From positions 64,001-128,000 of IMG/VR virus record IMGVR_UViG_3300021255_004000: a stretch of DNA of 64,000 nt. The stretch is one strand, 5' to 3'. The notes beneath the pieces were generated by a model. The model saw only the letters and a program-made list of their open reading frames with translations, was not told where the DNA came from and did not search any database. Source of the stretch: a virus (taxonomy: Duplodnaviria; Caudoviricetes). The translations under genes and the position numbers were made by a program. Each line of letters begins with the position of its first letter. Positions within the stretch are counted from its first letter, which is position 1. This document shows positions 9,161-61,969 of this stretch, piece after piece.

Positions 9161-10549
9161 TTACTTTAACAGATTTTTAATGTTTGCAATCAGAATTGCC
9201 TTGTCAGTTTTTCCGTTGTTTACCTGATCTTTATGGGCAACTTCCAGAGCCTTGCGGAACTTTTCACTTGGCTTGAAACCTAAAGCAATCAGATCATCAC
9301 CAGTTACAATAGGTGCAGGAATTGGCTGACCAATTAAGCTTACAATTTTTGGAGAAGCCAGAGCTTCGTCTAAAGGCATTTCTTCATCGTCAGCAGCAGT
9401 TTTGATACAACCATCGCTGTCGCTTCTGCACAGCTCGCACAGTAAGTCGAAGTCAGGCAGATTCAGAATACTCATAATTGCAAACTTTTTATCCAGCAGG
9501 CCTAACTGATGCATCTTCATATGATTTGCAACTAAGCCTTCAACACGATGAGCTGTTGCACAATCTAATCTTAAGTCTCTCAGGAACTTGTAAGCAATAG
9601 GAGCACCAACTTCTGCGTGATCTTTAACTGCAGGGAAACCATTTTTGCTTAAGCCATTTTTGCGGCCTGAAGCAGGCTTTCCACAGTCGTGCAGAATTGC
9701 GCCCATTATGAAAACGAAACGGTCAATTTCATTTTCAATTTTAGGAGCACGAGCAACTGCAGCTTTTACAACCAGCATTGTGTGGTTGAAAACATTGCCT
9801 TCACTGTGCCATTTTGGGTTCTGCTCGCAAGTTTTCATATCTTCGAAAATCTCAGTTAAGTGAATTGCATCGAAGATTCCCATTCTTCTCATAATTTCAA
9901 AAACTTCCATTGTGAAGTCTTTACCGCCAAAAGTTTTGATTAACTCAGCACATTGTCTTTCAACAGAAACATCAGCAAAAACAACTTCAGGTGTTATTTT
10001 GTTGATGTGTGCCTCGATTGCAGCAACATCCTTTTCATTTGCCTTGAAGCCTTTTGAAGCAACAAAGCGAACATATCGGAAGATTCTTAAAGGATCTTCA
10101 GTGATGCGGTCAACTGCGTTTCCAACAAAACTTAATGTGTTTGATTTGATGTCAGCAATACCACAACCTGTTGGGTCGATAATGTTTCCATCTTTATCTT
10201 CGTACAAAGAGTTTACTGTAAAATCTCTGCGGAAAGCATCATCTTCAATTTTGTTTGAAAACTTGATTGTGGGATGGCGGCCTCTTGTCAGGTCAGAACG
10301 CCAAGTTGCAATTTCAACCTGTTCACCATTGATGATTGGCATTGCAACTCCGTACAAGTTTGCTTTTCTTGTTTCTGTAACACCAAAGATTTTGTTGATC
10401 TCATCAGGTGTTGCATTTGTTGAAATATCATAATCGTGAGGAGTTCTTCCAGTCAGTTCATCACGAACGCAACCGCCGACAAAGTAGGCCTTAAAACCAG
10501 CATTTTCAATAGGTGTAATAACTTTTTTGATAATTTCCTGCTTTGTCAA
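9161..10549 (-). CDS. cca: tRNA nucleotidyltransferase (CCA-adding enzyme) with HD domain
   Basis: VGGCVRD, DYDIST, DAFRRDFTVN, EDPLRIFR; HD motif LHDCGK. Confidence 0.9.
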   Translation of the reverse strand: MTKQEIIKKVITPIENAGFKAYFVGGCVRDELTGRTPHDYDISTNATPDEINKIFGVTETRKANLYGVAMPIINGEQVEIATWRSDLTRGRHPTIKFSNKIEDDAFRRDFTVNSLYEDKDGNIIDPTGCGIADIKSNTLSFVGNAVDRITEDPLRIFRYVRFVASKGFKANEKDVAAIEAHINKITPEVVFADVSVERQCAELIKTFGGKDFTMEVFEIMRRMGIFDAIHLTEIFEDMKTCEQNPKWHSEGNVFNHTMLVVKAAVARAPKIENEIDRFVFIMGAILHDCGKPASGRKNGLSKNGFPAVKDHAEVGAPIAYKFLRDLRLDCATAHRVEGLVANHMKMHQLGLLDKKFAIMSILNLPDFDLLCELCRSDSDGCIKTAADDEEMPLDEALASPKIVSLIGQPIPAPIVTGDDLIALGFKPSEKFRKALEVAHKDQVNNGKTDKAILIANIKNLLK

Positions 10550-10571
10550 TTTGAACCTCCGTTACAAAAAT

Positions 10572-10600
10572 AATATAAAAGACTTGCACGGAAAGTTCAA
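10572..10600 (-). promoter_or_regulatory. sigma70-like early promoter (TTGAAC-N17-TATATT)
   Basis: one of ten copies with the same 17-nt spacer: 10572, 18936, 21048, 27799, 31595, 35749, 39570, 42720, 53998, 59896. Confidence 0.8.
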
Positions 10601-11169
10601 ATATTATGCAAAAGTGGATGATTCTTTTTATAGTCGAACTTCAAGCCGTCCTTTACAATTTTGACGATTTCATCGTAGCCTTTTTCATTACCATCAACGA
10701 CAACAAATGGGATTTTATTGGATTCGAGAAACTTGGATGTTTTTCCATCTATCTCTTTAGCTTCGCCTTCAGTTTGATTTCTTCCGTTAGGATTATATGG
10801 CTTCACACGATTGATGACGAAGTTGAAGTTGAAACGATGATACTTTTCAAACTCTTCAAGAGATGCAGCTTTCAACATTGGCTGATCTTCTCTTGCGTAC
10901 AATGCACCAAGAGCAATAGGGCTATCAGTGATAATTACATCGACTTTGCCAAAGCAGCGGCTTATTTTGAAAGACTGCTTTCCTGTAATGTAAAATTGAT
11001 TTTTGAAAACTTCAGAGTTGTTTTCCCAAACTTTATCTTTTGCAAACTCAGAAACATATTCACAGTCAATACCTGCAAGTTTGAGTTTTGCAAAAACATA
11101 AGCGGCGCCTGTAGATTTTCCTGCGCCTGGGCCAGCGAAAAGATTTACAATAATTGTGTTTTTATCCAT
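10597..11169 (-). CDS. P-loop NTPase/kinase (NadR-like AAA family)
   Basis: GPGAGKST; SEFAK; IITDSP; GRNQ. Confidence 0.8.
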   Translation of the reverse strand: MDKNTIIVNLFAGPGAGKSTGAAYVFAKLKLAGIDCEYVSEFAKDKVWENNSEVFKNQFYITGKQSFKISRCFGKVDVIITDSPIALGALYAREDQPMLKAASLEEFEKYHRFNFNFVINRVKPYNPNGRNQTEGEAKEIDGKTSKFLESNKIPFVVVDGNEKGYDEIVKIVKDGLKFDYKKNHPLLHNI

Positions 11170-11212
11170 AGTTGGATATTAACAAAAAAGGTTGCTAAAA
11201 AGCAACCAATTA

Positions 11213-11295
11213 CGGAACCTGCGTGAGTCGAACACGCTCAACCCGAAGGTTGTACAGCTTAGCAGGCTGCTGCATTACCGTCCTGCCCAGATTCC
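11213..11295 (-). tRNA. tRNA-Ser(GCT)
   Basis: cloverleaf, loop CT-GCT-AA, long variable arm, G73. Confidence 0.9.
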
Positions 11296-11304
11296 AAAAT
11301 ACTT

Positions 11305-11379
11305 TGTGAGTGGCAGGAGTCGAACCCGCCTTCATCTGATCCGTAGTCAGAGGCACCAATTCCGATATACCACACTCAC
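11305..11379 (-). tRNA. tRNA-Arg(ACG)
   Basis: TCTGA-CTACGGA-TCAGA, T-loop TTCGACT. Confidence 0.9.
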
Positions 11380-11388
11380 ATAAAATAT

Positions 11389-11504
11389 AGGCCTGTTGTA
11401 AATAGTGCAAGATTTTCAGTCTCGTGTGTCACCGTTTCACCTCATCAGGAAACCCTGATGGTGGGAGTCGAACCCACTTACGATAATAGGAACAACTTTT
11501 GCCT
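11389..11504 (-). ncRNA. carrier-stem RNA copy 1 with circularly permuted tRNA-Phe(GAA) module
   Basis: GGCAAAAGTTGTTCCTATT...TACAACAGGCC ends; internal order is T arm, loop-closed acceptor stem, D arm, CGAGA-CTGAAAA-TCTTG. Confidence 0.75.
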
Positions 11505-11510
11505 TATGAA

Positions 11511-11584
11511 AGCATCATATCGGATTCGAACCGACCCCTACTGCTTGGAGGGCAGTCGTGCTGAGCCGCTAACACTAATGATGC
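11511..11584 (-). tRNA. tRNA-Gly(TCC), C33 variant
   Basis: G1-C72, C2-G71, U73; loop CC-TCC-AA. Confidence 0.85.
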
Positions 11585-11597
11585 ATATTAAAGTTTT

Positions 11598-11671
11598 TGG
11601 GACCTCGAGGATTTGAACCCCGCACCCAGACATTATGAGTGTCGCGCTCTGACCCAATGAGCTAAGATCCC
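11598..11671 (-). tRNA. tRNA-CAT, probably Ile2 (lysidine type)
   Basis: loop CT-CAT-AA; GGG-starting acceptor and A73 resemble Ile2. Confidence 0.8.
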
Positions 11672-11675
11672 ATAA

Positions 11676-12050
11676 AGATTACACAGTACTAAGAATCTGT
11701 ATCGAACGTCGTACTCGGCGGGATCCTTTTCACTGATGAAGTTGAGTGGCTACTGTGTATCACCATTGATATGACCTGCCGTGGGACACGGGCTTCATCA
11801 TCCTTTGAGCAGCAGTTTTGAGTGACGAGTTCAAAACTTTATTGCCTCTAAGTGCCGCAGGTTCTGTCAGTTGTTTGAGAAGGACAGCGTATGTTAGACG
11901 CTTCCTTAATTATTGTACACTTGGTACAACAATCTCTCGTGTTTCCCTTGTCTTTCAAATCAGGCGCAAGTAAGAAACAAAGCGTTATGGAACCACACAT
12001 AATTCACATCATTTGTTGAACTCATAACCCTAGAAATGCCAAAATCCCTA
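11676..12050 (-). ncRNA. unidentified structured RNA(s)
   Basis: no ORF; several helices (TACACAGTA/TACTGTGTA, GTTTTGA/TCAAAAC, ACCTGC/GCAGGT). Confidence 0.45.
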
Positions 12051-12074
12051 TGTTTTTATATTAACATATTCAAG

Positions 12075-12147
12075 TCAGCCACCTGGGATTTGAACCCAGA
12101 ACCTAAGGATTAAGAGTCCCTCGCGCTAACCGTTGCGCCAGTGGCCG
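12075..12147 (-). tRNA. tRNA-Lys(CTT)
   Basis: AGGGA-CTCTTAA-TCCTT. Confidence 0.9.
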
Positions 12148-12152
12148 ATAAG

Positions 12153-12223
12153 TGAGCGATACGGGAGTTGAACCCGTCTCAGCAGATTAAAAGTCTGCGG
12201 CAAAACCGATTTGCTAATCGCCC
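12153..12223 (-). tRNA. tRNA-Lys(TTT)
   Basis: GCAGA-CTTTTAA-TCTGC. Confidence 0.9.
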
Positions 12224-12233
12224 GTAAATTGTT

Positions 12234-12306
12234 TGAGCTTGATGGGAATCGAACCCACGACCCACAGATTAAAAGTCTGTTGCTCTACCTATTGAGCTAC
12301 AAGCCC
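12234..12306 (-). tRNA. tRNA-Lys(TTT)
   Basis: ACAGA-CTTTTAA-TCTGT, canonical D and T arms. Confidence 0.92.
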
Positions 12307-12324
12307 ATAAGATACTCAAACAAT

Positions 12325-12387
12325 TTAACAGGCTTTGTCTAAGGCAGCAATTACTGCTGCCACTTCCGCATTTCCTCTCATAATCAT
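12325..12387 (-). CDS. 20-aa mini-ORF MIMRGNAEVAAVIAALDKAC
   Basis: strong AAGGAG RBS 6 nt before ATG, lying between tRNA-Cys and tRNA-Lys. Confidence 0.5.
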   Translation of the reverse strand: MIMRGNAEVAAVIAALDKAC

Positions 12388-12400
12388 AATTTACTCCTTG

Positions 12401-12473
12401 AGATGAGGATGGGACTCGAACCCACCTGTAACAGTTTTGCAGACTGCTGCCTCACCAATTTGGCTACCTCATC
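12401..12473 (-). tRNA. tRNA-Cys(GCA)
   Basis: GCAGT-CTGCAAA-ACTGT, U73. Confidence 0.9.
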
Positions 12474-12484
12474 ATAATTTTATT

Positions 12485-12556
12485 TACCGCGTGAAGGAGT
12501 TGAACCTTCCTAAGCCGTCTTGTAAGGGCGGTGCACAACCGATGTACCAACGCGGT
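12485..12556 (-). tRNA. tRNA-Val(TAC)
   Basis: loop CT-TAC-AA, A73. Confidence 0.85.
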
Positions 12557-12566
12557 ATAAAGTTGA

Positions 12567-12649
12567 CGGAAGCGACAGGAATCGAACCTGCGACCTTTTT
12601 AGGGGAGACTGTTTTCAAGACAGTTTGATGCGCCAACCAACTCGCTTCC
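12567..12649 (-). tRNA. tRNA-Ser(TGA)
   Basis: ACTGT-CTTGAAA-ACAGT, variable arm, G73. Confidence 0.85.
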
Positions 12650-12657
12650 AAATGTAG

Positions 12658-12730
12658 GGTGCCCATCGGGATTCGAACCCGACCCTGAAGATCCACAATC
12701 TGCCGTGCTAACCGCTAACACTATGGGTAC
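12658..12730 (-). tRNA. tRNA-His(GTG)
   Basis: loop TT-GTG-GA, C73; genomic -1 base is T, not G. Confidence 0.85.
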
Positions 12731-12732
12731 AT

Positions 12733-12805
12733 TGCTGAAGGCAGGATTCGGACCTGCTACATCTGCCTTATGAGGGCAGCGTTCAACCGTATGAACTTCT
12801 TCAAC
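12733..12805 (-). tRNA. tRNA-Met(CAT), elongator-like
   Basis: CTGCC-CTCATAA-GGCAG; T-loop TCCGAAT. Confidence 0.8.
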
Positions 12806-12812
12806 ATAATAG

Positions 12813-12883
12813 CCCAAACTCAGGGATTTGAACCCCGGCTAGATGATCTTCAGTCACCTGTGCTACCGCTACACCAAGTTTGG
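12813..12883 (-). tRNA. tRNA-Phe(GAA), atypical body
   Basis: GGTGA-CTGAAGA-TCATC; G37 and G73. Confidence 0.75.
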
Positions 12884-12888
12884 ATATC

Positions 12889-12962
12889 TGTGGCATCGGG
12901 GATTCGAACCCCGAAAATTTGCGTTCTTAGCGCAACAAGTATGCCAGTTCCATCAATGCCAC
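12889..12962 (-). tRNA. tRNA-Leu(AAG), short variable loop
   Basis: TTGCG-CTAAGAA-CGCAA; Leu-type D arm. Confidence 0.8.
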
Positions 12963-13570
12963 AAAAGTGTATTAGTTCGTTCATCGTATCTAATAAAGAT
13001 ACAATGAAGTCTACTTTTAATGTAGTCCTCTCTGGCTTTATCTTTCATCTTTCCTTTAACAGAATTGTGATAGCCTTTCTTTTCATCATATTCAAAAGCA
13101 ATGTTCAATTCTTTGTCATAGCCATCAAGGTGATATGGTCCAACACAAACTTCTCCGCCATTCATAGCGTGTTGTAAATGCCAACCATATTTTGCGTTCA
13201 GCTCATCAATGAACTTACAAGCATTTTCATTATAATTGCAATAGTTACCAAGATTGTGTCTTTTCCGCATCATCTCAGCAAGTTTTGCTCTTGTTTCAGG
13301 CGTATGAGTGTGGCCTTTCTTAATCTCACGATTAGGATTCAGTCCACAGTATCTCATATGTTGTGTTTTTGACTCCTTATTATTGAAGATTCTTCCGCAA
13401 AAGTCACAAAAACAAGTTTCTTTTCTATGAAGAGACCTTCCCAAGGAGTCAAGTCCTTGTTCTAATCTTTTTTCACAAGTTTTCTTATGTTCAAAATAGT
13501 TTCTTCTACCTTGAACAACACAACCACAATATTCACATTTCCAATTTTGAGCGTTTTTGTATGTTTTCAT
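12953..13570 (-). CDS. free-standing homing endonuclease (Zn fingers + NUMOD3 + PD-(D/E)XK-like domain)
   Basis: CxxC repeats, HTPETRAKL, YHLDGYD...AFEYDE. Confidence 0.75.
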   Translation of the reverse strand: MKTYKNAQNWKCEYCGCVVQGRRNYFEHKKTCEKRLEQGLDSLGRSLHRKETCFCDFCGRIFNNKESKTQHMRYCGLNPNREIKKGHTHTPETRAKLAEMMRKRHNLGNYCNYNENACKFIDELNAKYGWHLQHAMNGGEVCVGPYHLDGYDKELNIAFEYDEKKGYHNSVKGKMKDKAREDYIKSRLHCIFIRYDERTNTLLWH

Positions 13571-13622
13571 ATCAATTAGTAAAGATTGGAAGACACACTT
13601 AACATCTCAAACCCATATTAAC

Positions 13623-13650
13623 AAAAAAGGCAACTCCTAAGAGCCGCCTT
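13623..13650 (-). terminator. attenuator C terminator
   Basis: AAGGCGGCTC-TTAG-GAGTTGCCTT followed by T tract; 5' strand shared with the antiterminator at 13646-13689. Confidence 0.8.
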
Positions 13651-13682
13651 GAAAGATTTGTAAACTGTTTCTGCTTACAACT

Positions 13683-13811
13683 TCAAGGCTCTAATACGAA
13701 ATGTTTTCCAAAGAGAGAACGAAGGACCATCTTCGAACACATACCGCATCCCAATACGAAACTAACAAATGAGGAATGTTTAACTATGTTCGACATCTTT
13801 GAAAAATTCAT
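13683..13811 (-). CDS. leader peptide C (42 aa) MNFSKMSNIVKHSSFVSFVLGCGMCSKMVLRSLFGKHFVLEP
   Basis: AAGGA RBS; stop TGA lies in the antiterminator strand GCCTTGAA. Confidence 0.75.
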   Translation of the reverse strand: MNFSKMSNIVKHSSFVSFVLGCGMCSKMVLRSLFGKHFVLEP

Positions 13812-13893
13812 ATTCGTCAATCCTTAGCTATCAGGTTGCTACCCAAAATGTTTTTTCTTATTGAATAGTTAGTAAACAATTCAATAAAGTAAG

Positions 13894-13966
13894 TGGACCT
13901 ACCGAGCATCGAACTCGGACCTCAGGATTGCAGATCCCGTATGCCAGCCATTAACACCTTAAGCCC
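13894..13966 (-). tRNA. tRNA-Ala(TGC), C33 variant
   Basis: G3.U70; loop TC-TGC-AA. Confidence 0.85.
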
Positions 13967-13973
13967 ATAAAAA

Positions 13974-14090
13974 TCTTCTGTTTATCCGCGAAGGTTGTTA
14001 CCAACTCTTCTTTCCTCTTGGAGGAACTGCTTTGTTTATTCTCCCGCTCCCGCATAACGCGTCGGTGTTGCGTTAGGAATTCACAGAAGA
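13974..14090 (-). ncRNA. unidentified closed-stem RNA
   Basis: ends pair TCTTCTGT/ACAGAAGA; internal hairpins; flanked by tRNAs. Confidence 0.45.
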
Positions 14091-14094
14091 TTAG

Positions 14095-14167
14095 TGGACC
14101 GTAGGGGAGTCGAACCCCTCTTTCCAGCGTGCAAAGCTGGAGTACTAAGCCGATATACGAACAGCCC
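14095..14167 (-). tRNA. tRNA-Ala(TGC)
   Basis: G3.U70; CCAGC-TTTGCAC-GCTGG. Confidence 0.9.
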
Positions 14168-14174
14168 AAAATTA

Positions 14175-14260
14175 AAAGCGGGTTGTAAAAATTTCGCCGC
14201 AATGACGAAATATTGGAGTCGAACCAATAATTTCCGTTTAATAGGAACAACCTTTGCTTT
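14175..14260 (-). ncRNA. carrier-stem RNA copy 2 with T arm + closed acceptor-like helix
   Basis: AGCAAAGGTTGTTCCTATT...TACAACCCGCT; TATTGG-TTCGACT-CCAATA. Confidence 0.7.
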
Positions 14261-14261
14261 A

Positions 14262-14333
14262 TTCCTCTGCTAGGATTCGAACCCAGAACAACTGATCCAG
14301 AGTCAGCAGTGTTACCAATTACACCACAGAGAA
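14262..14333 (-). tRNA. tRNA-Gln(CTG)
   Basis: U1-A72; GCTGA-CTCTGGA-TCAGT. Confidence 0.9.
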
Positions 14334-14334
14334 G

Positions 14335-14406
14335 TCGGACGAGAAGGAGTTGAACCTTCGAAATCTCGGTCCCAGGCCGAGTGACATACCGCTTGCCGAC
14401 CGTCCG
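14335..14406 (-). tRNA. tRNA-Pro(TGG), C33 variant
   Basis: C1-G72, A73; CTCGG-CCTGGGA-CCGAG. Confidence 0.85.
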
Positions 14407-14414
14407 AAAATGAA

Positions 14415-14486
14415 AGCACCTGAAGGGAGTTGAACCCTCGCCTCAGCCTTGGCAAGGCCGCGTACTAGCCGTTATACTACAAGTAC
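14415..14486 (-). tRNA. tRNA-Gly(GCC)
   Basis: loop TT-GCC-AA, U73. Confidence 0.88.
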
Positions 14487-14494
14487 ATAAAATA

Positions 14495-14571
14495 TTGGGG
14501 TGGGTGGAATTGAACCACCGTGTAACCAACTAACCTTTCTGCGGTTTATCAGACCGAGGGTATACACCCCA
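14495..14571 (-). tRNA. rearranged tRNA-Ile(GAT)-like RNA lacking a canonical D arm
   Basis: 7-bp acceptor, CGGT-CTGATAA-ACCG, T arm; D-loop-like AGTTGGT lies 3' of the anticodon arm. Confidence 0.6.
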
Positions 14572-14587
14572 TTGTGTTTCAAGTTTT

Positions 14588-14660
14588 CAGGTGCGGAGAG
14601 ATTCGAACTCCCACCGACGGACTTGGAAACCGTAATGCTAAACCTTTACACCACGCACCT
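14588..14660 (-). tRNA. tRNA-Trp(CCA)
   Basis: A1-U72, G73; loop TT-CCA-AG. Confidence 0.85.
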
Positions 14661-14663
14661 ATA

Positions 14664-14695
14664 AATCATTAAAGGCTCAACTTTTAGTTGAGCCT
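14664..14695 (-). terminator. attenuator B terminator
   Basis: AGGCTCAAC-TAAAA-GTTGAGCCT plus an interrupted T tract; overlaps the antiterminator at 14689-14721. Confidence 0.7.
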
Positions 14696-14718
14696 GTAAA
14701 ATCCAAATTTTACTAGGC

Positions 14719-14853
14719 TCACTTGATCTGCCACTGTCCTGAAATTGGGGCAATAGCTGCAACTGGTGCAAAGCCGGCGAAAGAAACTGGAAGACTAATG
14801 TGGCCGGCAAGTTTTACTGACTTAACTGATTTACAAACCATCATTGCTTTCAT
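14719..14853 (-). CDS. leader peptide B (44 aa) MKAMMVCKSVKSVKLAGHISLPVSFAGFAPVAAIAPISGQWQIK
   Basis: AGGAGAAAGGA RBS; stop TGA begins the antiterminator strand TGAGCCT. Confidence 0.8.
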   Translation of the reverse strand: MKAMMVCKSVKSVKLAGHISLPVSFAGFAPVAAIAPISGQWQIK

Positions 14854-14958
14854 ATTGTCCTTTCTCCTATAATTTTATATTAACAACTTTTCAGAAGTTT
14901 CTGAAAAATTATTTTCAATATTTAGTTAGTACAGTTGCAAAAACTGTAAGAGTTTTAA

Positions 14959-15040
14959 TCGGCCAGGAGAGACTCGAACTCTCAATCCACACGGCGTCCG
15001 ACCTTAATTCGGATGTGTATACCAATTCCACCACTGACCG
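14959..15040 (-). tRNA. tRNA-Leu(TAA)
   Basis: TCCGA-ATTAAGG-TCGGA, variable arm. Confidence 0.85.
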
Positions 15041-15047
15041 AACAAAA

Positions 15048-15230
15048 TTAACTATCCTTTAAGTATGCAACAGTTTTTCCATTTTCAAACATTTCTTGTT
15101 GAAGTTTGGAAATCTTGTTGTAAAGATCTTGGCAAATGCCTTTTGATCTTCCACTTAAATGGAAGCGTGCCATATGTCCTAGCACGAATGCAAGTTCTTG
15201 CAATCTCTCGTTATCGAGTTTGATTGTCAT
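15048..15230 (-). CDS. small hypothetical protein (MTIKLDNERL...)
   Basis: AAGGAG RBS before ATG at 15230. Confidence 0.55.
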   Translation of the reverse strand: MTIKLDNERLQELAFVLGHMARFHLSGRSKGICQDLYNKISKLQQEMFENGKTVAYLKDS

Positions 15231-15275
15231 ATAGACTCCTTGCACCACCAATTTTTTAATGAAATTGGAAACATT

Positions 15276-15342
15276 GGCGAGCTGTAGCAAATATACATTA
15301 ACAGTGTATTGCCTCATCGGCGTAATAGGAACAACTTATGCC
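15276..15342 (-). ncRNA. carrier-stem RNA copy 3 with tRNA-Asn(GTT) anticodon arm
   Basis: GGCATAAGTTGTTCCTATT...TACAGCTCGCC; ATACA-CTGTTAA-TGTAT. Confidence 0.7.
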
Positions 15343-15351
15343 TAACATGTG

Positions 15352-15433
15352 TGGCCGCAGGAAGTTTTGCCATCTCTTCGTCCCCCGACTTACAAGGTCG
15401 GTGCTCTTAGGGCAGTCTGAGCTACATTTGGCC
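15352..15433 (-). tRNA. atypical tRNA-Thr(TGT) with degenerate T arm
   Basis: D stem GCTC/GAGC; CCGAC-CTTGTAA-GTCGG; no TTCRA loop. Confidence 0.55.
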
Positions 15434-15751
15434 TTTGCTGCATCATAAAAAGACAACGCAGCGAAATCCGAAGTTTTTCTTTCAGTTGCCACAACCAAGT
15501 ATTTTTCAACCCACGTCTCATTAAGACAACCTACACTGGAGCTTTTGGTAAAACTTTCTACCCATATTCATCATACGGTAACCATTGTAAAGGCCTTTAT
15601 GCTTGTTCCGCCAGGCTCCCCGCTGACCAAGCTGATGTCTCGGTAATTTTTCATACCAGCCTCACCTTGGGCTCATACTTCCTTTCCCCAAGTACTCTTA
15701 GGTTTTCACGCGACCTAAACTATCCCACGAGTTTGAAAGAGTTTGCTTTCT

Positions 15752-16054
15752 CTAGTAATAACACCACCATTTGATACGACAAGTTTCACTGTCGAAGCAT
15801 TCAGTAAGAATGTTATCAATTTCCTCTTCCGTTGTATCAATATTAACAGATTTCAGTCTGCTTCTGATAAGTCCACGAGAATCTTTTTTCTTCTCGGAAC
15901 GGTCTCCTTTCATCGCACGGCGAGCGTAACGATCACAAGGATTTCCCCAACGGAACCAGAATCTTCGAGCTTCCTGTGTACCGCGTCTTGCGGTATATTC
16001 ACCGTAGCTGAAGTTTGCCTTATAAAAGGCGCTCTCGCAATAATCATTTAACAT
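15752..16054 (-). CDS. hypothetical basic protein
   Basis: AGGAG RBS; 100-aa ORF. Confidence 0.5.
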   Translation of the reverse strand: MLNDYCESAFYKANFSYGEYTARRGTQEARRFWFRWGNPCDRYARRAMKGDRSEKKKDSRGLIRSRLKSVNIDTTEEEIDNILTECFDSETCRIKWWCYY

Positions 16055-16251
16055 CTAGTGTATCTCCTACACTATCCGTAAGTCATACGCGATCCTCCTA
16101 TTATAGCATCATCGTTCACAGGATCGAACTGCAACCGTACAGACCTTTAGAGCCTATCCGTTTTACCCCACACAGGGCGATGTTGCTTATGGTTGAACGA
16201 GATGGCAACAACATTACTTGTACACCAACGTCATCTGCTATAAAACTAAGA

Positions 16252-16333
16252 TGGGCCAAAGGAGAGTCGAACTCCTAATCCTTTCGGCGACTGCTTTTGA
16301 GGCAGTTGCGTATACCAGTTCCGCCATTAGCCC
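16252..16333 (-). tRNA. tRNA-Leu(CAA)
   Basis: ACTGC-CTCAAAA-GCAGT, variable arm. Confidence 0.9.
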
Positions 16334-16339
16334 AAATGA

Positions 16340-16412
16340 TTGCGGGAGGTGGACTCGAACCACCGACCTTCGGGTTATGGGCCCGATAAGCTGCCAACTG
16401 CTCTATCCCGCG
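16340..16412 (-). tRNA. initiator tRNA-fMet(CAT), C33 variant
   Basis: C1xA72 mismatch, three G-C pairs in the anticodon stem, loop CC-CAT-AA. Confidence 0.9.
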
Positions 16413-16427
16413 ATGTAACATGTGTTT

Positions 16428-16503
16428 TGACGCTGACAGGACTCGAACCTGCGACACCGAGCTTAGAAGGCTCGTGTTCTTATTCCAGCTGAACTACAGC
16501 GCC
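16428..16503 (-). tRNA. tRNA-Arg(TCT)
   Basis: CGAGC-CTTCTAA-GCTCG. Confidence 0.9.
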
Positions 16504-16685
16504 ATATTGAAAGTACTTTATACGTCGGACCAGTCCGTTCAGCTTTCGCCTAGGGAGTTTCGAGGCTCCCACCTACGCATATCAACTTTCTGTGTGCTTT
16601 TCGGGCTTCTTCTACTAAGCACTTAAACTTTCAGTTCTGCTAGAAACCAAAGTTCTTGACGTTCTCTCTAGCAATGAGAACCGTA

Positions 16686-16760
16686 TAGCTGTTGCAGGAG
16701 TCGAACCTGCTATCGTAAAGGATATGAGCCTCACATATTGAACCGTTCTACCCAACAGCG
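16686..16760 (-). tRNA. tRNA-Met(CAT), unpaired 1:72
   Basis: loop CT-CAT-AT; C1xU72. Confidence 0.7.
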
Positions 16761-16768
16761 ACGTACAA

Positions 16769-16890
16769 AAAGACGAGTTGTATTATTCGTGCTCTAACCG
16801 CTGAGCTATCCGCCCACGAACGAGCGGAGTTGGATTCGAACCAACGACCCCGTGCTTAAAAGGCAACAAATAGGAACAACTTATGTCTTT
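16769..16890 (-). ncRNA. carrier-stem RNA copy 4 with circularly permuted tRNA-Lys(TTT)
   Basis: GACATAAGTTGTTCCTATT...TACAACTCGTC; order is anticodon loop CTTTTAA, T arm, loop-closed acceptor TCCGCTC/GGGCGGA, D arm. Confidence 0.8.
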
Positions 16891-16893
16891 TAG

Positions 16894-16966
16894 CGGTGTA
16901 TGCGGGAATCGAACCCGCCATCTCCTGCGTGACAGGCAGGCGAAATAGCCGATATTCAAATACACC
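16894..16966 (-). tRNA. tRNA-Asp(GTC)
   Basis: CCTGC-CTGTCAC-GCAGG, G73. Confidence 0.9.
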
Positions 16967-17175
16967 AAATAAACAAACCACCTTCCAAACGGAACGCCCG
17001 ATACTTGATCTTAATGTCCGCACTTATCCAAGAGTTTCATTTCGCGCGAGAAACTCTCGGGGGTTAGGGAGCTACAGGTGCCTAGGCTTACTACGATTAA
17101 GCCAACAAATGCGAGCTCGTCTCACAAAGGTTTGTACTTTTTGCCAACTTCTGTCTAGAATGAAGTTGAAAGTAG

Positions 17176-17263
17176 TGGGCCGAGAGGGAGTCGAACCCCC
17201 GATGTTTGCCGTAAAGGTGACGGATTTACAGTCCGCTGACTTCGCCACTGGTCACACCGACCC
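17176..17263 (-). tRNA. tRNA-Tyr(GTA)
   Basis: GCGGA-CTGTAAA-TCCGT, long variable arm. Confidence 0.9.
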
Positions 17264-17329
17264 ATAAAATTGATGGCCGTGCTCATCACACATTTACAAC
17301 ATCGTTTCGAGCAATGTTACCATCAAGTA

Positions 17330-17402
17330 AGCTACTTGTAGGACTTGAACCCACAACATCCTGATTACAGGTCAGGCGCTCTACCATTGGAGCTAAAGTA
17401 GC
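17330..17402 (-). tRNA. tRNA-Thr(TGT), C33 variant
   Basis: CCTGA-CCTGTAA-TCAGG. Confidence 0.88.
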
Positions 17403-17558
17403 ACAATAAAAGATAAATTACATTTTTTCTTTCCATACATCTTTCATTCTAATTTGTCCGCGGTCACTGAACGAAGAAGATGGTTGTATTAGATGTTCTA
17501 TAACTTTTCGGGGCCTTAAGCCCGTATTGAGTGTTTCAACATCAGTCTCTTATCTTTA

Positions 17559-17631
17559 AGCCGCCTGAGGGATTTGAACCCACAACATCCGCATTACAGG
17601 TGCGGCGCTCTACCATTGGAGCTAAGGAGGC
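17559..17631 (-). tRNA. tRNA-Thr(TGT), C33 variant
   Basis: CCGCA-CCTGTAA-TGCGG. Confidence 0.88.
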
Positions 17632-17634
17632 ATA

Positions 17635-17706
17635 CAGTTCCGAAAGGAGTCGAACCTTCGTTCTCTGGATGAAAACCAGATGGCCTAGCCGTTAGCCGAC
17701 GGAACC
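17635..17706 (-). tRNA. tRNA-Glu(TTC)
   Basis: TCTGG-TTTTCAT-CCAGA. Confidence 0.88.
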
Positions 17707-17787
17707 AAAAACTGTGAACTACTTCTAAGACTGGACGGAAGTATAGCAGCTCGTTCAAAAGATATATTGACTTTCAAACTTTTGTCT

Positions 17788-17872
17788 CGTATCAGGCAGG
17801 GCTCGAACCTGCGATGGGCTTTCGCTCGGCAGATTAACAGTCTGCTGTCTTCGACCACTCGACCACTGATAC
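17788..17872 (-). tRNA. tRNA-Asn(GTT) with long variable arm
   Basis: GCAGA-CTGTTAA-TCTGC, G73. Confidence 0.85.
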
Positions 17873-17879
17873 ATATTTA

Positions 17880-18431
17880 TTATGTTAAAAAGATTTTTAC
17901 TTCTTCTATAAAGATTTTAGGATTATTGAAAATATCTTTCCAAGATTTTCTCAATTCTTTCCATCCTTCTTCATTCAGAAGTTTATCTTTCTGAACATCT
18001 CTTTCTTTTTGCTCTTGAAATCTTTCGTGTTGTTCACCATCAATTTCAACGCAAAGTTTTTTGTCAGGCCAAGCAAAGTCCAAAGAAAACCTATGAAAAG
18101 GAACTTCTCTGTAATAATCTTTATCAATTTCTTGACCAAATTCATTTCTCATCATTGTAATAAACCACTCCTCAGGATATGAAGGTTTATTATTCCAACG
18201 ACAATCTCCAATGTTATGAGCTCGACCTTCAGCGTGAGCTTTTTTCATCGAAGCAGAAATCTTTTGTCTAACATCATCCGACATTGTATGTCCGCAATGA
18301 TCCTTCAACTTCTGTCTTGTTTCTTCTGACAAAACAGGTTTTTCTTTTCCAAGAGCTTTAGCCTTAGTATATTGATTTGTACCGTGGCCTTTTCTTGCGT
18401 GCATTGCATCGTACCATTTTTGACTTTTCAT
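17880..18431 (-). CDS. free-standing homing endonuclease (NUMOD3 + DUF559/Vsr-like domain)
   Basis: SEETRQKL/SDDVRQKIS repeats; FSLDFAW..LCVEIDGEQH...RD..KD. Confidence 0.8.
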   Translation of the reverse strand: MKSQKWYDAMHARKGHGTNQYTKAKALGKEKPVLSEETRQKLKDHCGHTMSDDVRQKISASMKKAHAEGRAHNIGDCRWNNKPSYPEEWFITMMRNEFGQEIDKDYYREVPFHRFSLDFAWPDKKLCVEIDGEQHERFQEQKERDVQKDKLLNEEGWKELRKSWKDIFNNPKIFIEEVKIFLT

Positions 18432-18519
18432 ATCAATTAGTACGGTCCTCCGCTCTACATGTGTCCCTATCGTCGGAACCTATTGTCAACATCTTATCGT
18501 CGGTCCCTATTGTCGGTAG

Positions 18520-18593
18520 CGGGATATGCGAGCATCGAACTCGCGACCTCTAGCGTGACAGGCTAGCGTGGTAGCCAACTCCACCAATACCCC
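18520..18593 (-). tRNA. tRNA-Asp(GTC)
   Basis: CTAGC-CTGTCAC-GCTAG. Confidence 0.88.
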
Positions 18594-18807
18594 AAAATTG
18601 TAGGTATAAGAAACCTTTTGCAAGGAAAGGAATTACCCGTATGCCTTTTACCAGCCAACAACTTGTTCAGTAGTTCCATTTCTGTTATCTGACCAATAGT
18701 GTTTCTACTGGCTCTGACAAGTTATCAACCAAGGATTCGAACCTTCCACCGAACGATACCACGAGGTGGCAGCAACCAAGCTGTTATTTTATTCCGTTTA
18801 ACGTTCT

Positions 18808-18880
18808 TAGATCTTGCGGGGATCGAACCCACTCCTCCACCTTGAAAGGGTGGCGACTCAACCTTTTTGTCCTAAGATCC
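18808..18880 (-). tRNA. tRNA-Glu(TTC)
   Basis: CCACC-CTTTCAA-GGTGG. Confidence 0.88.
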
Positions 18881-18999
18881 ATATTTGAAGTTTCCTTCTT
18901 TTGTTGTAAACCTTTTGTATCGGTTTTACAGAAATAATATAAAAGAAGTTTTTTCAAAGTTCAAAAATTTTTATTTTTTTGCAATTTTTGTTATAAAAC

Positions 19000-19028
19000 A
19001 AAAAAGGCAAACCTTCATCGGTTTGCCT
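19000..19028 (-). terminator. attenuator A terminator
   Basis: AGGCAAACC-GATGAA-GGTTTGCCT followed by T tract; overlaps the antiterminator at 19023-19059. Confidence 0.8.
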
Positions 19029-19050
19029 CAGGGAAACATTTCTCAGTTCT

Positions 19051-19173
19051 CTAAGGCAACCTTGTATCTTCATTATAATCGTATTCATCTGTAGTGATAG
19101 CAGTTCTAACATCATTATTCAATAATGATCTTGTTGTGAGAACTTCTGCTGTCAATGAATACAATGAAGTCAT
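19051..19173 (-). CDS. leader peptide A (40 aa) MTSLYSLTAEVLTTRSLLNNDVRTAITTDEYDYNEDTRLP
   Basis: AAGGAAGG RBS; stop TAG lies in the antiterminator strand TTGCCTTAG. Confidence 0.78.
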   Translation of the reverse strand: MTSLYSLTAEVLTTRSLLNNDVRTAITTDEYDYNEDTRLP

Positions 19174-19267
19174 TTTTAATAGCCCTTCCTTAATATATTT
19201 CAATTAGTACAACCCTTAAAAATGTAAGAGTTGTAATTTGTTCCTCGTATATTTATATTAACAGATT

Positions 19268-19867
19268 TTAGTCTTCTGCTGTAGGAATTTCAATTCCAAA
19301 CAGTTTTGATAACTTATCTTTCCAATTAAGGAAATCATCGTTATGGCCGCCATCTGCATAATAAGTTACACCGTCATAAATCTTATCATAATTTGATAAG
19401 AAAGCTTTACAGAACTCTTCGTTCTCAGGATCGCCATCGCTGGCAGTATCATAAAGCTCGTCAATAAGTGTATCAAGCTTCTCAATGCAGTTTGCTGCTG
19501 CTTCATAGTTTGTCCAAACTCTTGAGAGAATTTGGAATAAACTTATCAACTTCATAAACTTATGCTTCAAAGCATCTGTTTTGATTACATCATACATATC
19601 AGAAAGTTCGCCGCCTACAATAACTGGGACGCCATTCAATCTTTCAAATGCGTGACATAATTCGTGTGCAACATATTTAGGCAAGTCCTCTTTGGAAACT
19701 TTTTTCCAAACAGAAATACTCTTTTCTGAAATGTTGTACTTTGCTTTCATTCCTGTGTAGTCAAAGTCGACAACATTTATAGAAACACTTGGACACGGAA
19801 TACCTGCATCCTCAAGCTTATCAAGCAAATTGTCTAAACACGCCTGTGCATCTTCTTGTTTAATCAT
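19268..19867 (-). CDS. HExxH metallopeptidase-like protein
   Basis: VAHELCHAFE. Confidence 0.65.
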   Translation of the reverse strand: MIKQEDAQACLDNLLDKLEDAGIPCPSVSINVVDFDYTGMKAKYNISEKSISVWKKVSKEDLPKYVAHELCHAFERLNGVPVIVGGELSDMYDVIKTDALKHKFMKLISLFQILSRVWTNYEAAANCIEKLDTLIDELYDTASDGDPENEEFCKAFLSNYDKIYDGVTYYADGGHNDDFLNWKDKLSKLFGIEIPTAED

Positions 19868-20035
19868 AAACGGTACTCCTAATATTTAGTTATAGGAGAA
19901 AGAGTTCTCGCCGGTTTTAATTTCTCAAACTACAGCCCCGCTACCTGCATTCGATTTTTGCAAGCCATACGAGTAGCATCACTGCTGCGAGGTTGATGGG
20001 ACTTTCACCCATAGTGACGTTTAACGAACTCCTAA

Positions 20036-20124
20036 TTCGGAAGGCGGGATTCGAACCTGCACGACGCTGATATGCGTCACCAGAATCAAAGTCTGGGGAG
20101 ATACCAATTACTCTTTACTTCCGA
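20036..20124 (-). tRNA. tRNA-Gln(TTG) with long variable arm
   Basis: CCAGA-CTTTGAT-TCTGG; GACGC-ATATCA-GCGTC arm. Confidence 0.7.
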
Positions 20125-20130
20125 GTAAAA

Positions 20131-20700
20131 TAGTTTTCTCACTCTTGTTTGCAACGCGACGCAAGATTCCAATAGGTGGACATATCCGATATTCCTATTA
20201 TACGGAAGGCCCTTAAGCGCATCTACTGCCGCGAGAAAACTATAGGTGAACCAAGGACTTGAACCTTGCCGTTACTCCAGCCTTGCGAGCTTCACGGATC
20301 CAACAGTGTCCACCATCATTATAAGTGCAGTCGGGAATTGAACCCGCTCTCAGCTGGCGTGATCCGCGTGGGACGAAGCCGTGCCTTTTTCCTTCATCGC
20401 ACTTAACAAGCCTTACGGATTGCTCCTGCTTGTAATGGAGTCTTAGAGGTTTGACTGCCAACCTTTAGAACATAGAGGATTCGAACCTCAGTTTCTGAGC
20501 ATACTACACTCAGCGTTCTAGACCCTGCCCTACTTTGCTGTGCACTGCTTTTTCGAGCTTTCGAACTAATGTTCTCCTTTGACGGTATCAACTTCATCCT
20601 GCGTCGTCATATACAGGCCTTTACCATCCGGTGCTTCCAGCGGTTGAGTATAACTCCTCATATTTCCCGTTCTCTGTGTAGCCATCTACGTTGAAGTTGT
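20131..20700 (-). ncRNA. run of tRNA-like and closed-stem RNAs (20131-20242, 20244-20314, 20324-20403, 20467-20574)
   Basis: three units have an acceptor stem and a TTCRA T arm but non-canonical D/anticodon regions; 20131-20242 is a closed stem. Confidence 0.5.
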
Positions 20701-20706
20701 CAAATA

Positions 20707-20779
20707 TAGTTCCTACGGGGCTTGAACCCATTTTTCGAGCTTGAGAGGCTCGCGAATTAGCCAGTTATTCGAAGGAACC
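20707..20779 (-). tRNA. tRNA-Glu(CTC)
   Basis: CGAGC-CTCTCAA-GCTCG. Confidence 0.85.
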
Positions 20780-20784
20780 AAAAA

Positions 20785-21015: not shown

Positions 21016-21149
21016 ACTCGCCTCCTTGTTTGCGTTTTGACAATAATAATATAAAAGAATGTTTGAAAAAGTTCAAAAATTCTTAAATATTTTTCAAAAA
21101 AAAATACCTGCAGCAACAGCCACAGGTATTATATTAACACTTTAGGCTA

Positions 21150-61905: not shown

Positions 61906-61969
61906 ATATTGATATTAACAAAAAATCCTTCAGTAAAAACTGAAGGATTTCTCAAATATAATTTTTATG

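Follow-up and report, generated by a model that had tools for sequence, protein, structure and literature searches.

Three tiny genes in the tRNA array of a large rumen phage, each ending in a putatively switchable transcription stop

The analysed window, a 64-kb stretch of DNA from a large rumen phage, carries an array of at least 33 tRNA genes, every one on the minus strand. Three tiny genes (leaders A, B and C), each ending in a putatively switchable transcription stop, lie in this array ahead of tRNA blocks A, B and C (Table 1). A degenerate Ile(GAT)-like tRNA in block B (14495-14571) and a CAT tRNA (16686-16760) were added with Rfam; the block B Ile tRNA is intact in the relatives L055 and L076. 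An Arg(CCT) call made by ARAGORN (14204-14280) was without Rfam support. The gaps between the tRNAs are filled with other structured, Y-RNA-like and tRNA-like elements. Genes for a CCA-adding enzyme, a T4 Rnl1-like ligase and tmRNA, all related to tRNA maintenance, are found close to the array. The terminator at the array end, which lacks both a leader and a competing helix, therefore served as a control.

Table 1. Positions of the tRNA blocks, leader units and promoter-like elements in the window
Feature	Position	Strand	Details
tRNA block A	14958..18881	-	Glu, Asp, Asn, Glu, Thr, Thr, Tyr, Asp, CAT, Arg(TCT), Met, Leu(CAA), Leu(TAA)
DUF559 endonuclease ORF	17880-18431		inserted in block A
tRNA block B	13893..14661	-	Trp, Ile(GAT)-like, Gly(GCC), Pro, Gln(CTG), Ala, Ala
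tRNA block C	11212..12963	-	Leu(AAG), Phe, Met, His, Ser(TGA), Val, Cys, 3x Lys, CAT (Ile2?), Gly(TCC), Arg(ACG), Ser(GCT)
TGTTAATAT extended -10-like motif	19255..19263	-	upstream of leader A
TACTAA motif	19204..19209	-	upstream of leader A
Shine-Dalgarno site AAGGAAGGG, leader A	19183..19191	-	conserved in aligned variants
Leader A ORF	19051..19173	-	40 codons + TAG
Antiterminator A, 5' strand	19046..19062	-	contains stop codon 19053-19051; pairs with 19035-19020, dG -17.0, z -3.8 vs shuffles
Terminator A hairpin	19004..19029	-	10 pairs; T-run 19003-18995
Promoter-like TTGAAC-N17-TATATT	18936..18964	-	between terminator A and first tRNA
TGTTAATAT extended -10-like motif	14877..14885	-	directly 5' of leader B Shine-Dalgarno site
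Shine-Dalgarno site, leader B	14869-14859	-	
Leader B ORF	14719..14853	-	44 codons + TGA
Antiterminator B, 5' strand	14707..14722	-	contains stop codon 14721-14719; pairs with 14701-14688, dG -16.2, z -4.6
Terminator B hairpin	14673..14695	-	9 pairs; poor T-run; absent from terminator-scan hits
Shine-Dalgarno site, leader C	13826-13821	-	
Leader C ORF	13683..13811	-	42 codons + TGA
Antiterminator C, 5' strand	13680..13690	-	contains stop codon 13685-13683; pairs with 13655-13645, dG -13.3, z -2.5
Terminator C hairpin	13627..13650	-	10 pairs + T-run
TGTTAATAT motif	13615..13623	-	overlaps terminator C T-run; possible attenuator-independent promoter, block C
Array-end terminator	11190..11207	-	control; competing-helix z +0.4

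The leader units of the array, first described in an initial annotation of the sequence, were confirmed. All three ORFs were found between the tRNA blocks with the annotated lengths, and an AAGGA/AGGAG-type Shine-Dalgarno site is located 7-11 nt 5' of each start codon. In public data, gene callers have labelled the ORFs hypothetical proteins. Across all 64 kb of the window, ORFs of 40-42 aa in front of strong terminators occur only inside the tRNA array, and strong terminators outside the array come after genes of 106-633 aa. In relatives, the indels found in the leaders are in-frame only (-3, +3 and +6 in leader A, a 6-nt deletion in leader B). Between the window and L074-76, leader C shows five differences, all non-synonymous and all leading to amino acids of the set carried by its tRNA block (in-set residues). 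Altogether, the leaders have more non-synonymous than synonymous changes. Contigs from RNA libraries span the region; such contigs cannot reveal transcript ends.

The stop codon of each leader lies, as annotated, within the 5' strand of an antiterminator helix, and this helix and the terminator compete for the terminator 5' arm. Terminators A and C are strong, but the intrinsic terminator assigned to unit B is weak and was missed by the terminator scan. In 8 of 8 leader units, the end of the ORF, stop codon included, pairs with the 5' arm of the terminator (dG -12.5 to -17.0, z -2.5 to -4.6), whereas competing pairing at eight ordinary control terminators reached dG -3.3 to -8.8 with z near 0. 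This specific pairing distinguishes the leader-associated terminators from ordinary ones. The hairpins might instead be processing or stability elements of the tRNA precursor, serving as nuclease entry sites or in 3'-end protection, with the ORFs being incidental. The array does need processing into single tRNAs, and its gaps hold structured elements of other kinds. However, this explanation appears highly improbable to us, as it leaves unexplained the conserved start codons, the Shine-Dalgarno sites and the in-frame-only indels, and likewise the mutually exclusive helices with canonical G+C-rich stem and T-run terminators and the composition match.

The annotated counts of leader residues that match downstream tRNAs (31/40 in leader A and 38/42 in leader C, Met1 included) are correct, and all 20 amino acids occur across the three leaders. 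For comparison, windows of the phage's own proteins, polar and hydrophobic stretches included, were used as natural controls. Such windows reach the 30/39 in-set residues of leader A at a frequency of 3.7e-4, and none of 10,597 attains the 37/41 of leader C (<1e-4). Residues 9-40 of leader C are all in the block C set. In leader C and in its counterpart C' in related phages, out-of-set residues are confined to positions 2-10 and 41-45, which lie outside the stretch where sensing is expected. Leader B, which precedes blocks B and C, had been assigned to block B. Indeed, its C-terminal stretch matches Trp, Ile, Gly, Pro, Gln and Ala, but the whole leader fits blocks B and C together (43/43) better than block B (20/43, natural windows 2e-2). 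Shuffling tRNAs among blocks gave p=0.0014 and shuffling amino-acid labels p=5e-6; the observed leader positions rank 9-10 among 528 possible block boundaries. In silico, the composition of the leaders is thus supported to match the downstream and not the upstream tRNAs. The match resides at the amino-acid level and is not clear at the codon level. The term codon-programmed is an overstatement, since codon-level matches (observed vs predicted: 26 vs 21.7, 15 vs 12.9 and 29 vs 26.2) barely exceed what genome codon usage and amino-acid identity would give. Classical leaders have tandem runs of regulatory codons, and these leaders have none.

Related phages carry a second array type (type II), in which the leaders have diverged and track a different tRNA partition. 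Leader composition and block content hence co-vary. The in-set counts are 36/38 for II_A (natural windows 2.2e-3) and 40/45 for II_C (1.9e-4). In type II, the Trp, Gln, Pro and Ile tRNAs are located behind leader A', and these four residues account for 11/38 positions of A' vs 2/39 in the type I leader (Fisher p=0.006). Block C' has a tRNA for Ala but none for Arg, and leader C' contains three Ala and no Arg; leader C has no Ala and one Arg. When the type II variants L001 and L005 are compared, insertions in one strand of the antiterminator helix are matched by insertions in the other. Among close relatives, tRNA content varies while the leader stays unchanged. L024 and L041 have a further attenuator-like unit whose competing helix is specific (z -3.5 and -6.3); the composition of this unit shows no significant match to its eroded tRNA block (21/30). 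Unrelated leaders with the same pattern are present in two distant megaphages, both on the reverse strand (33/35 in-set in G001, L062; 28/34 in G006, L081; ∼4e-3 each), and the G006 antiterminator is a perfect 12-nt helix (dG -25.3, z -4.5). Units D and E, which were tested after the hypothesis was set, confirmed the composition match. No such units were found in the related arrays of G005 and G010 or in phage T5.

The units could also be attenuators or insulators coupled to translation, reporting on the overall capacity to translate, such as ribosome availability or transcription-translation coupling, rather than on the supply of particular tRNAs. Their composition would then have another cause, for example avoidance of dependence on the tRNAs of other blocks. 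The weak codon-level match, the lack of single-codon runs and the mixing of two blocks in leader B fit this explanation, and the anatomy requires just a ribosome that reaches or fails to reach the stop codon. We nevertheless consider it unlikely, because a general sensor needs neither block-restricted amino acids nor a change in composition when tRNAs move between blocks, and because the boundary test puts the leaders at the best-fitting partition.

Two promoter-like motifs of the phage, TTGAACTT..TCTTTTATATT and TGTTAATAT, are strongly over-represented. The latter occurs 12 times in the window, always on the minus strand, vs 0.84 expected; the TTGAAC-N17-TATATT element belongs to a class of 10-11 copies, minus strand only, vs 0.07 expected. 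TACTAA, proposed as the promoter-like motif heading each unit, is indeed present upstream of every leader and also before both homing-endonuclease ORFs. A promoter role is not supported; the over-represented motifs differ from it. The caveat that promoter motifs follow terminators A and C was borne out by conserved members of both over-represented classes, and a promoter-like element is conserved after terminator A' in type II. Blocks A and C should therefore need no read-through, and units A and C would only add read-through and modulate rather than switch. To say that the leaders switch on their blocks was an overstatement for these two. Gating without an intervening promoter is predicted only for unit B in the window and for C' in type II relatives. 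Block C' (∼18 tRNAs) is probably expressible only by read-through, because there is no room for a promoter after terminator C'.

The same elements bear on whether the leaders are ordinary small phage genes or chance ORFs that end transcription units ahead of a normal terminator and the next promoter, with a match arising by chance or from shared polar vs hydrophobic/basic classes. Promoter-like motifs follow terminators A and C as they do other unit boundaries in the window, leader A closes a unit starting from a promoter at 21076, and the public gene calls agree with small genes. Leaders C and C' are hydrophobic and basic, A and A' acidic and polar, and the window was picked once the match had been seen. 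On the other hand, ordinary terminators lack the stop-codon-containing competing helix seen in all leader units, and the phage's own protein windows almost never attain the in-set counts. Lys makes up 9.1% of the proteome but is absent from the 77 residues of leaders A and A', whose Arg codons suit the Arg tRNAs of their own blocks. The match held in units D and E, and the non-synonymous excess is unlike a protein under purifying selection. Ordinary genes are therefore a very unlikely explanation.

In our view, each unit is probably a ribosome-mediated (leader-peptide) transcription attenuator in front of a phage tRNA block; the initial interpretation is partly supported. RNA polymerase would transcribe a short ORF of 35-46 codons carrying a Shine-Dalgarno site, whose last codons, together with the stop codon, would form the 5' strand of the antiterminator helix. 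On reaching the stop codon, a ribosome would cover this strand, so that the terminator forms and transcription ends before the tRNA block. If charged tRNA is scarce, the ribosome would stall earlier, the antiterminator would form and polymerase would enter the block. As the leaders are spelled mostly in amino acids of the following tRNAs, read-through is probably tuned by the decoding speed of those codons, and shortage of those tRNAs, not others, would raise transcription of the block. Accumulating phage tRNAs would lower read-through again, resulting in negative feedback. Unit B would gate both blocks B and C, and units A and C would provide read-through on top of the promoter-like elements behind them. 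Translation, stalling and regulated termination are predicted here from sequence. The shortage might be caused by host shut-off, anticodon nucleases or starvation; that anticodon-nuclease damage is sensed is pure inference.

Folding with a ribosome footprint, as proposed in the initial annotation, gave the terminator in every unit when the ribosome was placed at the stop codon, but a response to stalling only in some. With stalls at codons 21-29, I_A and II_A fold to the antiterminator, and I_C does so for a stall at codon 29. Minimum-free-energy folds of I_B, II_C, D and E retain the terminator under any footprint, and a switch in these units rests on kinetic reasoning. In the model, a stall early in a 40-codon ORF (codon 11, I_A) might not release the antiterminator.

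We found no published description of leader-peptide attenuators in phage tRNA arrays. Phage tRNA arrays, as in T5, T4-like and giant phages, replace a depleted host tRNA pool, and the large array described here likewise covers nearly all amino acids and adjoins tRNA repair and maturation genes. In the published accounts known to us, such arrays are treated as promoter-driven. In T5, unlike here, the small ORFs of the tRNA region run directly into tRNAs without a terminator hairpin. T-box riboswitches, which precede translation-related genes, likewise respond to tRNA status by forming either a terminator or an antiterminator, but they bind uncharged tRNA directly and have no ORF; neither a T-box nor another Rfam cis-regulator matched in the array region at E<=0.1. 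The attenuator of pheST (phenylalanyl-tRNA synthetase), with its pheM leader, places a component of the translation apparatus under the control of ribosome stalling on cognate codons, as is proposed here. It differs in being chromosomal, sensing one amino acid and having no tRNA array. The E. coli tRNA-Phe genes pheU and pheV have 5' leaders of just 3-4 nt, and in the literature covered no confirmation was found of any cellular tRNA gene being attenuated by ribosome stalling on cognate codons. The multivalent attenuators of enterobacteria, with the ilvGMEDA leader responding to Ile/Leu/Val and the thr leader to Thr/Ile, share with the phage units a short translated ORF before the regulated genes (here predicted). 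Common to both would also be mutually exclusive antiterminator and terminator, with a ribosome at the stop codon leading to termination and a stalled one to read-through, and the sensing of more than one amino acid (both proposed here). Unlike these attenuators of biosynthetic enzyme genes, the phage units precede tRNA genes, their leaders of 35-46 codons sample 6-15 amino acids without tandem runs, and promoter-like elements come after some of them. A single phage tRNA array contains several of these units, and every unit is matched to its own block.

The tRNA array of the window is divided by three short ORFs, leaders A, B and C, each followed by a block of tRNA genes (blocks A, B and C). 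Whether the amino acids of a leader correspond to the tRNAs behind it was scored by counting, without Met1, the residues served by a tRNA of the downstream block (in-set residues). Equal-length stretches from the phage's own proteins, polar and hydrophobic ones included, served as natural windows. Leader A has 30 of 39 residues in-set, a count reached by natural windows at 3.7e-4, and leader C 37 of 41 (0 of 10,597 natural windows). Leader B scores 20 of 43 against block B (natural windows 2e-2) and 43 of 43 against blocks B and C together (0 of 10,509). The match claimed by the initial annotation withstood shuffling, both of tRNAs among blocks (p = 0.0014) and of amino-acid labels (p = 5e-6), and when both boundaries were moved with tRNA order fixed, the actual leader positions ranked 9-10 of 528. 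The match is to the block behind a leader and does not extend to the block before it (leader C scores 5/41 against block B; leader B, 4/43 against block A). Leader A is devoid of Gly, His, Phe, Cys, Gln, Trp and also of Lys, the commonest residue of the proteome (9.1%). The only out-of-set residues of leader C are at positions 2, 8, 41 and 42; these would be distant from the switch, or would lie beneath a ribosome that itself masks the antiterminator strand. Codons often fit the isoacceptors of the block as well: AGA/AGG in A goes with Arg(TCT) and CGT in C with Arg(ACG), and in B CAG goes with Gln(CTG), GGC with Gly(GCC) and ATT/ATC with Ile(GAT). At the codon level, however, observed matches exceeded expectation only slightly (26 vs 21.7 in A, 15 vs 12.9 in B, 29 vs 26.2 in C). 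Of the description "codon-programmed" the amino-acid part is thus retained, and because the codon-level excess is slight, the match is claimed at the amino-acid level only.

The leader ORFs themselves, which had been named from the sequence alone, are real. Each has a Shine-Dalgarno motif of the AAGGA/AGGAG type 7-11 nt 5' of its ATG, and start codon and Shine-Dalgarno site are kept in relatives. These relatives comprise a type I array (the window, L054, L055 and L069-L079) and a type II array (L001-L005, L059-L061 and L065-L068); most loci fetched via the adjoining 190-aa gene (L006-L052) had no tRNA array beside that gene. The leaders were confirmed as open frames: every indel inside them is in frame (-3, +3 and +6 in leader A, -6 in leader B), and single-base indels occur in their flanks. 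Substitutions are mostly non-synonymous, with ~9 vs 2 synonymous in A and 5 vs 0 in C at the few sites that differ among type I variants, the pattern to be expected where being translated counts for more than the peptide made. Between the window and L074-76, leader C differs by N2S, V19I, M28K, R31H and E41K, all five non-synonymous and all five in-set. Forms of leader A with 52-53 aa in the protein database were rejected: they stem from gene calls with TAG translated as Gln, and the TAG is conserved in the DNA. TAG=Gln was likewise used in some public gene calls for type I contigs.

Coordinates of the leader units, the tRNA array and its surroundings (window positions unless a related locus is named)
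Feature	Position	Strand	Remarks
Leader A ORF	19173..19051	minus	40 codons, stop TAG
Leader B ORF	14853..14719	minus	44 codons, stop TGA
Leader C ORF	13811..13683	minus	42 codons, stop TGA
Terminator A	19029-19004	minus	10-pair stem, T-run; terminator scan
Terminator B	14695-14673	minus	9-pair stem, poor T-run; failed terminator scan
Terminator C	13650-13627	minus	10-pair stem, T-run; terminator scan
Competing helix A	19062-19046 with 19035-19020	minus	dG -17.0
Competing helix B	14722-14707 with 14701-14688	minus	dG -16.2
Competing helix C	13690-13680 with 13655-13645	minus	dG -13.3
Unit D leader	4719-4829 of L062 (G001, 363-kb phage)	reverse	36 codons, then terminator and 24-tRNA block
Unit E leader	L081 (G006)	reverse	35 codons, 7 Ala; block behind starts with four Ala tRNAs
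Ile(GAT)-like tRNA	14495-14571	minus	aberrant D arm; Rfam, missed by ARAGORN
CAT tRNA	16686-16760	minus	Rfam, missed by ARAGORN
Endonuclease-like ORF	17880-18431	minus	DUF559/MTES_1575 match; inserted in array
Endonuclease-like ORF	12953-13570	minus	zinc-finger-like; inserted in array
CCA-adding enzyme	9161-10549		
AAA_28 kinase-like protein	10597-11169		
Metallophosphoesterase	22390-22938		
ThiC-family radical SAM protein	24890-25918	minus	near array
T4 Rnl1-like RNA ligase	26277-27512	minus	
tRNA-like gene	39948-40023	minus	four-base anticodon call; ~20 kb from array
tmRNA gene	40737-41114	minus	~20 kb from array
YrlA-like weak match	16788-16852	minus	Rfam
YrlA-like weak matches	L024 5094-5157, 6321-6394		Rfam
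TTGAACTT-class example sites	21076-21048, 18964-18936, 10600-10572	minus	
TGTTAATAT example sites	61920, 41140, 27540, 11184	minus	

In the whole window, strong terminators behind ORFs of 40-42 aa are confined to the tRNA array, and the remaining ones follow genes of 106-633 aa. In each unit, the 5' arm of the terminator has a potential pairing partner upstream, a segment reaching over the final codons and the stop codon. In A, B and C this competing helix is at least as stable in energy as the pairing of the two terminator arms with each other, and against shuffled upstream segments it reached z -2.5 to -4.6 in eight leader units (three in the window, five in relatives). Eight ordinary terminators of the window served as a control and gave dG -3.3 to -8.8 with z near 0, one at -2.1. 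The competing helix is specific to leader-associated terminators. Two type II variants, L001 and L005, are distinguished by insertions that match each other on the two strands of the competing helix, and types I and II by a matched one-base change on both terminator arms. Constrained folding was carried out with a ribosome footprint at the stop codon or at upstream stall codons. A footprint on the stop codon led to the terminator fold in all units. The antiterminator fold was obtained with footprints at codons 21-29 in A and in its type II counterpart A', and with a stall at codon 29 in C. Minimum-free-energy folds with footprints retained the terminator in B, in type II C', and in units D and E of two distant megaphages. 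The proposed exchange of folds under a stalled ribosome therefore agrees with the constrained folds for A and C and fails to appear for B; switching in B, C', D and E can be argued on kinetic grounds only.

The type II array has a different partition of the tRNAs. It has two leaders only, A' and C', ~35-39% identical to A and C. Behind A' lie Trp, Gln, Gln, Ile, Ala, Ser and Arg(ACG), in some genomes also Pro; A' has 36 of 38 residues in-set (natural windows 2.2e-3) and C' 40 of 45 (1.9e-4). Leader composition was found to co-vary with block content, a check suggested in the initial annotation: W, Q, P or I make up 11 of 38 residues in A' vs 2 of 39 in A (Fisher p = 0.006), tracking the move of the tRNAs. 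Block C' has an Ala tRNA and lacks an Arg tRNA, and leader C' has 3 Ala and 0 Arg vs 0 Ala and 1 Arg in leader C. The single type II boundary is the maximum of the boundary score. In several genomes a tRNA was lost with the leader unchanged; leaders do not follow loss over short time scales. The first tRNA of block C' lies ~12 nt past the T-run, and Lys, Phe, Val, His and Cys tRNAs occur in this block and nowhere else in the array. On this layout block C' would be expressible by read-through only, which argues that terminator C' is regulated or leaky.

Units D (in G001) and E (in G006) were tested after the hypothesis had been fixed, and were found by searching relatives without a ribosome-binding-site filter. 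Leader D has 33 of 35 residues in-set (natural windows 4.5e-3) and a competing helix at z -3.6; it uses all 15 amino acids of its block, its single Trp being matched by an intron-containing tRNA-Trp. A homologous unit is present in the related genome G003. Leader E has 28 of 34 in-set (natural windows 4.4e-3) and uses all 11 block amino acids, and pairing of its last codons with terminator arm and loop gives a perfect 12-nt antiterminator (dG -25.3, z -4.5). In L024/L041 another unit carries a specific competing helix (z -3.5 and -6.3); its composition against the eroded array (21/30 in-set) was not significant, and a search for extra tRNAs there with Rfam found none. Two other candidate leaders, ORFs of 15 aa in L062 and 62 aa in L082, showed neither competing helix nor match and were rejected. 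Since units occur in distant phages and none was found in the arrays of G005 (L064) and G010 (L082) or in phage T5, the device is recurrent, not universal. On the reverse strands of L062 and L063 (G001 and G003), several tRNAs contain introns (Trp, Phe, Lys, Leu and Asp calls). G003 also has a tRNA whose anticodon is CTA, suggestive of TAG recoding there.

Two promoter-like classes are strongly over-represented in the window, both on the coding strand only. The combination TTGAACTT..TCTTTTATATT has 11 copies vs 0.07 expected; written as TTGAACTT-N11-TCTTTTATATTATTAYTGTAA and preceded by A/T-rich sequence, the family has its 11 sites at 10572-59924 on the minus strand. Its copies usually lie 20-30 nt 5' of a Shine-Dalgarno site and start codon, and it is probably the phage's principal promoter class. 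The extended -10-like motif TGTTAATAT has 12 copies vs 0.84 expected. It stands 6 nt before the ATG at 61920 and 11184, where it would give leaderless mRNAs, directly upstream of the tmRNA gene, and before leader A (19263), leader B (14885) and several genes; three copies overlap terminator T-runs. Promoter motifs past terminators A and C, raised as a caveat in the initial annotation, are indeed present: a TTGAACTT-class copy at 18964-18936 separates terminator A from the first tRNA and is conserved at the equivalent position in type II, and a TGTTAATAT copy at 13623-13615 overlaps the T-run of terminator C. None was found between terminator and tRNAs for B or C'. Block A is predicted to be transcribed from its promoter-like element independently of its own attenuator, and block C probably likewise, so that units A and C would only add read-through from upstream. 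The notion that leaders switch on their blocks gives way to modulation for A and C, and is compatible with the layout of B. There, TGTTAATAT, Shine-Dalgarno site, ORF and hairpin are followed within a few bases by tRNA-Trp; unit B appears to be the window's only clean promoter-leader-terminator-gene layout, yet has the weakest predicted terminator. The motif TACTAA, once taken as promoter-like, occurs upstream of all three leaders and both homing-endonuclease ORFs. It lies on either side of TGTTAATAT, and because its distance from start codons is inconsistent, no promoter role could be assigned to it.

The phage is a large one from ruminant gut metagenomes, and contigs with the array or a relative of the adjoining 190-aa gene reach 75-419 kb. 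About 36 tRNA genes were identified by ARAGORN and Rfam on the minus strand from 20780 to 11212; an ARAGORN call of Arg(CCT) at 14204-14280 was without Rfam support. The array had no Megablast match among 50,697 deposited phage genomes, and no relatives of the CCA-adding enzyme were found among viral contigs. Together with the Rnl1-like ligase, the metallophosphoesterase and the ThiC-family protein, this enzyme forms what looks like a tRNA repair and maintenance neighbourhood; the AAA_28 kinase-like protein and the tmRNA are also counted among the tRNA-maintenance genes around the array. TACTAATTGATATG stands upstream of each of the two array-inserted endonuclease-like ORFs. The one at 12953-13570 is absent from close relatives L055 and L074-76 and from RNA and DNA contigs of other samples. 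Parts of the region were found in six ruminant-gut RNA libraries. In four rumen metatranscriptome runs, which belong to three studies, contigs span the array with leaders B and C; they show neither transcript starts, ends, strand nor level, and may include DNA carry-over. Their gap at 13039-13592 corresponds to variants without the endonuclease insertion. Gaps between tRNAs in the window and in L024 gave weak matches to YrlA, a Y RNA-like family (28-37 bits, below gathering score). In type II arrays nearly all tRNAs are separated by gaps of 150-300 nt. A conserved, apparently structured stretch of ~150-190 nt lies 3' of tRNA-Gln(TTG) (~19900-20035, minus strand) and includes GGGTGAAAGTCCC and GGGGCTGTAGTTTGA; in type II (L001 10620-10790) it is flanked by two TGTTAATAT motifs upstream of leader A'. 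This stretch had no Rfam match.

All three units combine a short ORF and ribosome-binding site upstream of genes, an intrinsic terminator between leader and genes (with a poor T-run in B), a helix that cannot coexist with the terminator and includes the stop codon in its 5' strand, and enrichment of cognate amino acids. Ribosome-mediated (leader-peptide) transcription attenuation of the tRNA blocks is the best explanation of these features, and we consider it fairly probable from the sequence. It is amended in three respects: the match is at the amino-acid level, A and C modulate and do not switch, and leader B covers two blocks. More tentatively, giant phages could possess modular demand-sensing for tRNA genes, each block being gated by a leader that lists its amino acids. 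The charged-tRNA pool would be read per amino acid and only missing ones topped up, for instance following host shut-off or the cleavage of tRNAs by host defences. Such a system would be evolvable, as the composition of a leader would be adjusted when tRNAs change block. If leader-peptide attenuation of tRNA blocks is real, phage tRNA arrays would be regulated, self-limiting circuits and not constitutive cargo, tRNAs sharing one regulatory unit could be predicted from leader sequence, the units would be natural, compact multi-amino-acid sensors for decoding speed, and the findings would bear on phage answers to tRNA-targeting host defences.

Leader-peptide attenuation is textbook knowledge for amino-acid operons and one synthetase operon. 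Full-text literature searches turned up no description of tRNA genes, or of phage or viral tRNA arrays, under leader-peptide control. A T-box riboswitch is recognized by a covariance-model match (specifier loop, T-box sequence), from which the array region differs: at E<=0.1, Rfam gave no T-box match in 10500-21500 and only tRNA, tRNA-like and weak Y-RNA-like matches. The architecture also differs from that of the phage T5 tRNA region, where small ORFs are found without terminator hairpins, whereas the leaders described here are followed by a terminator.
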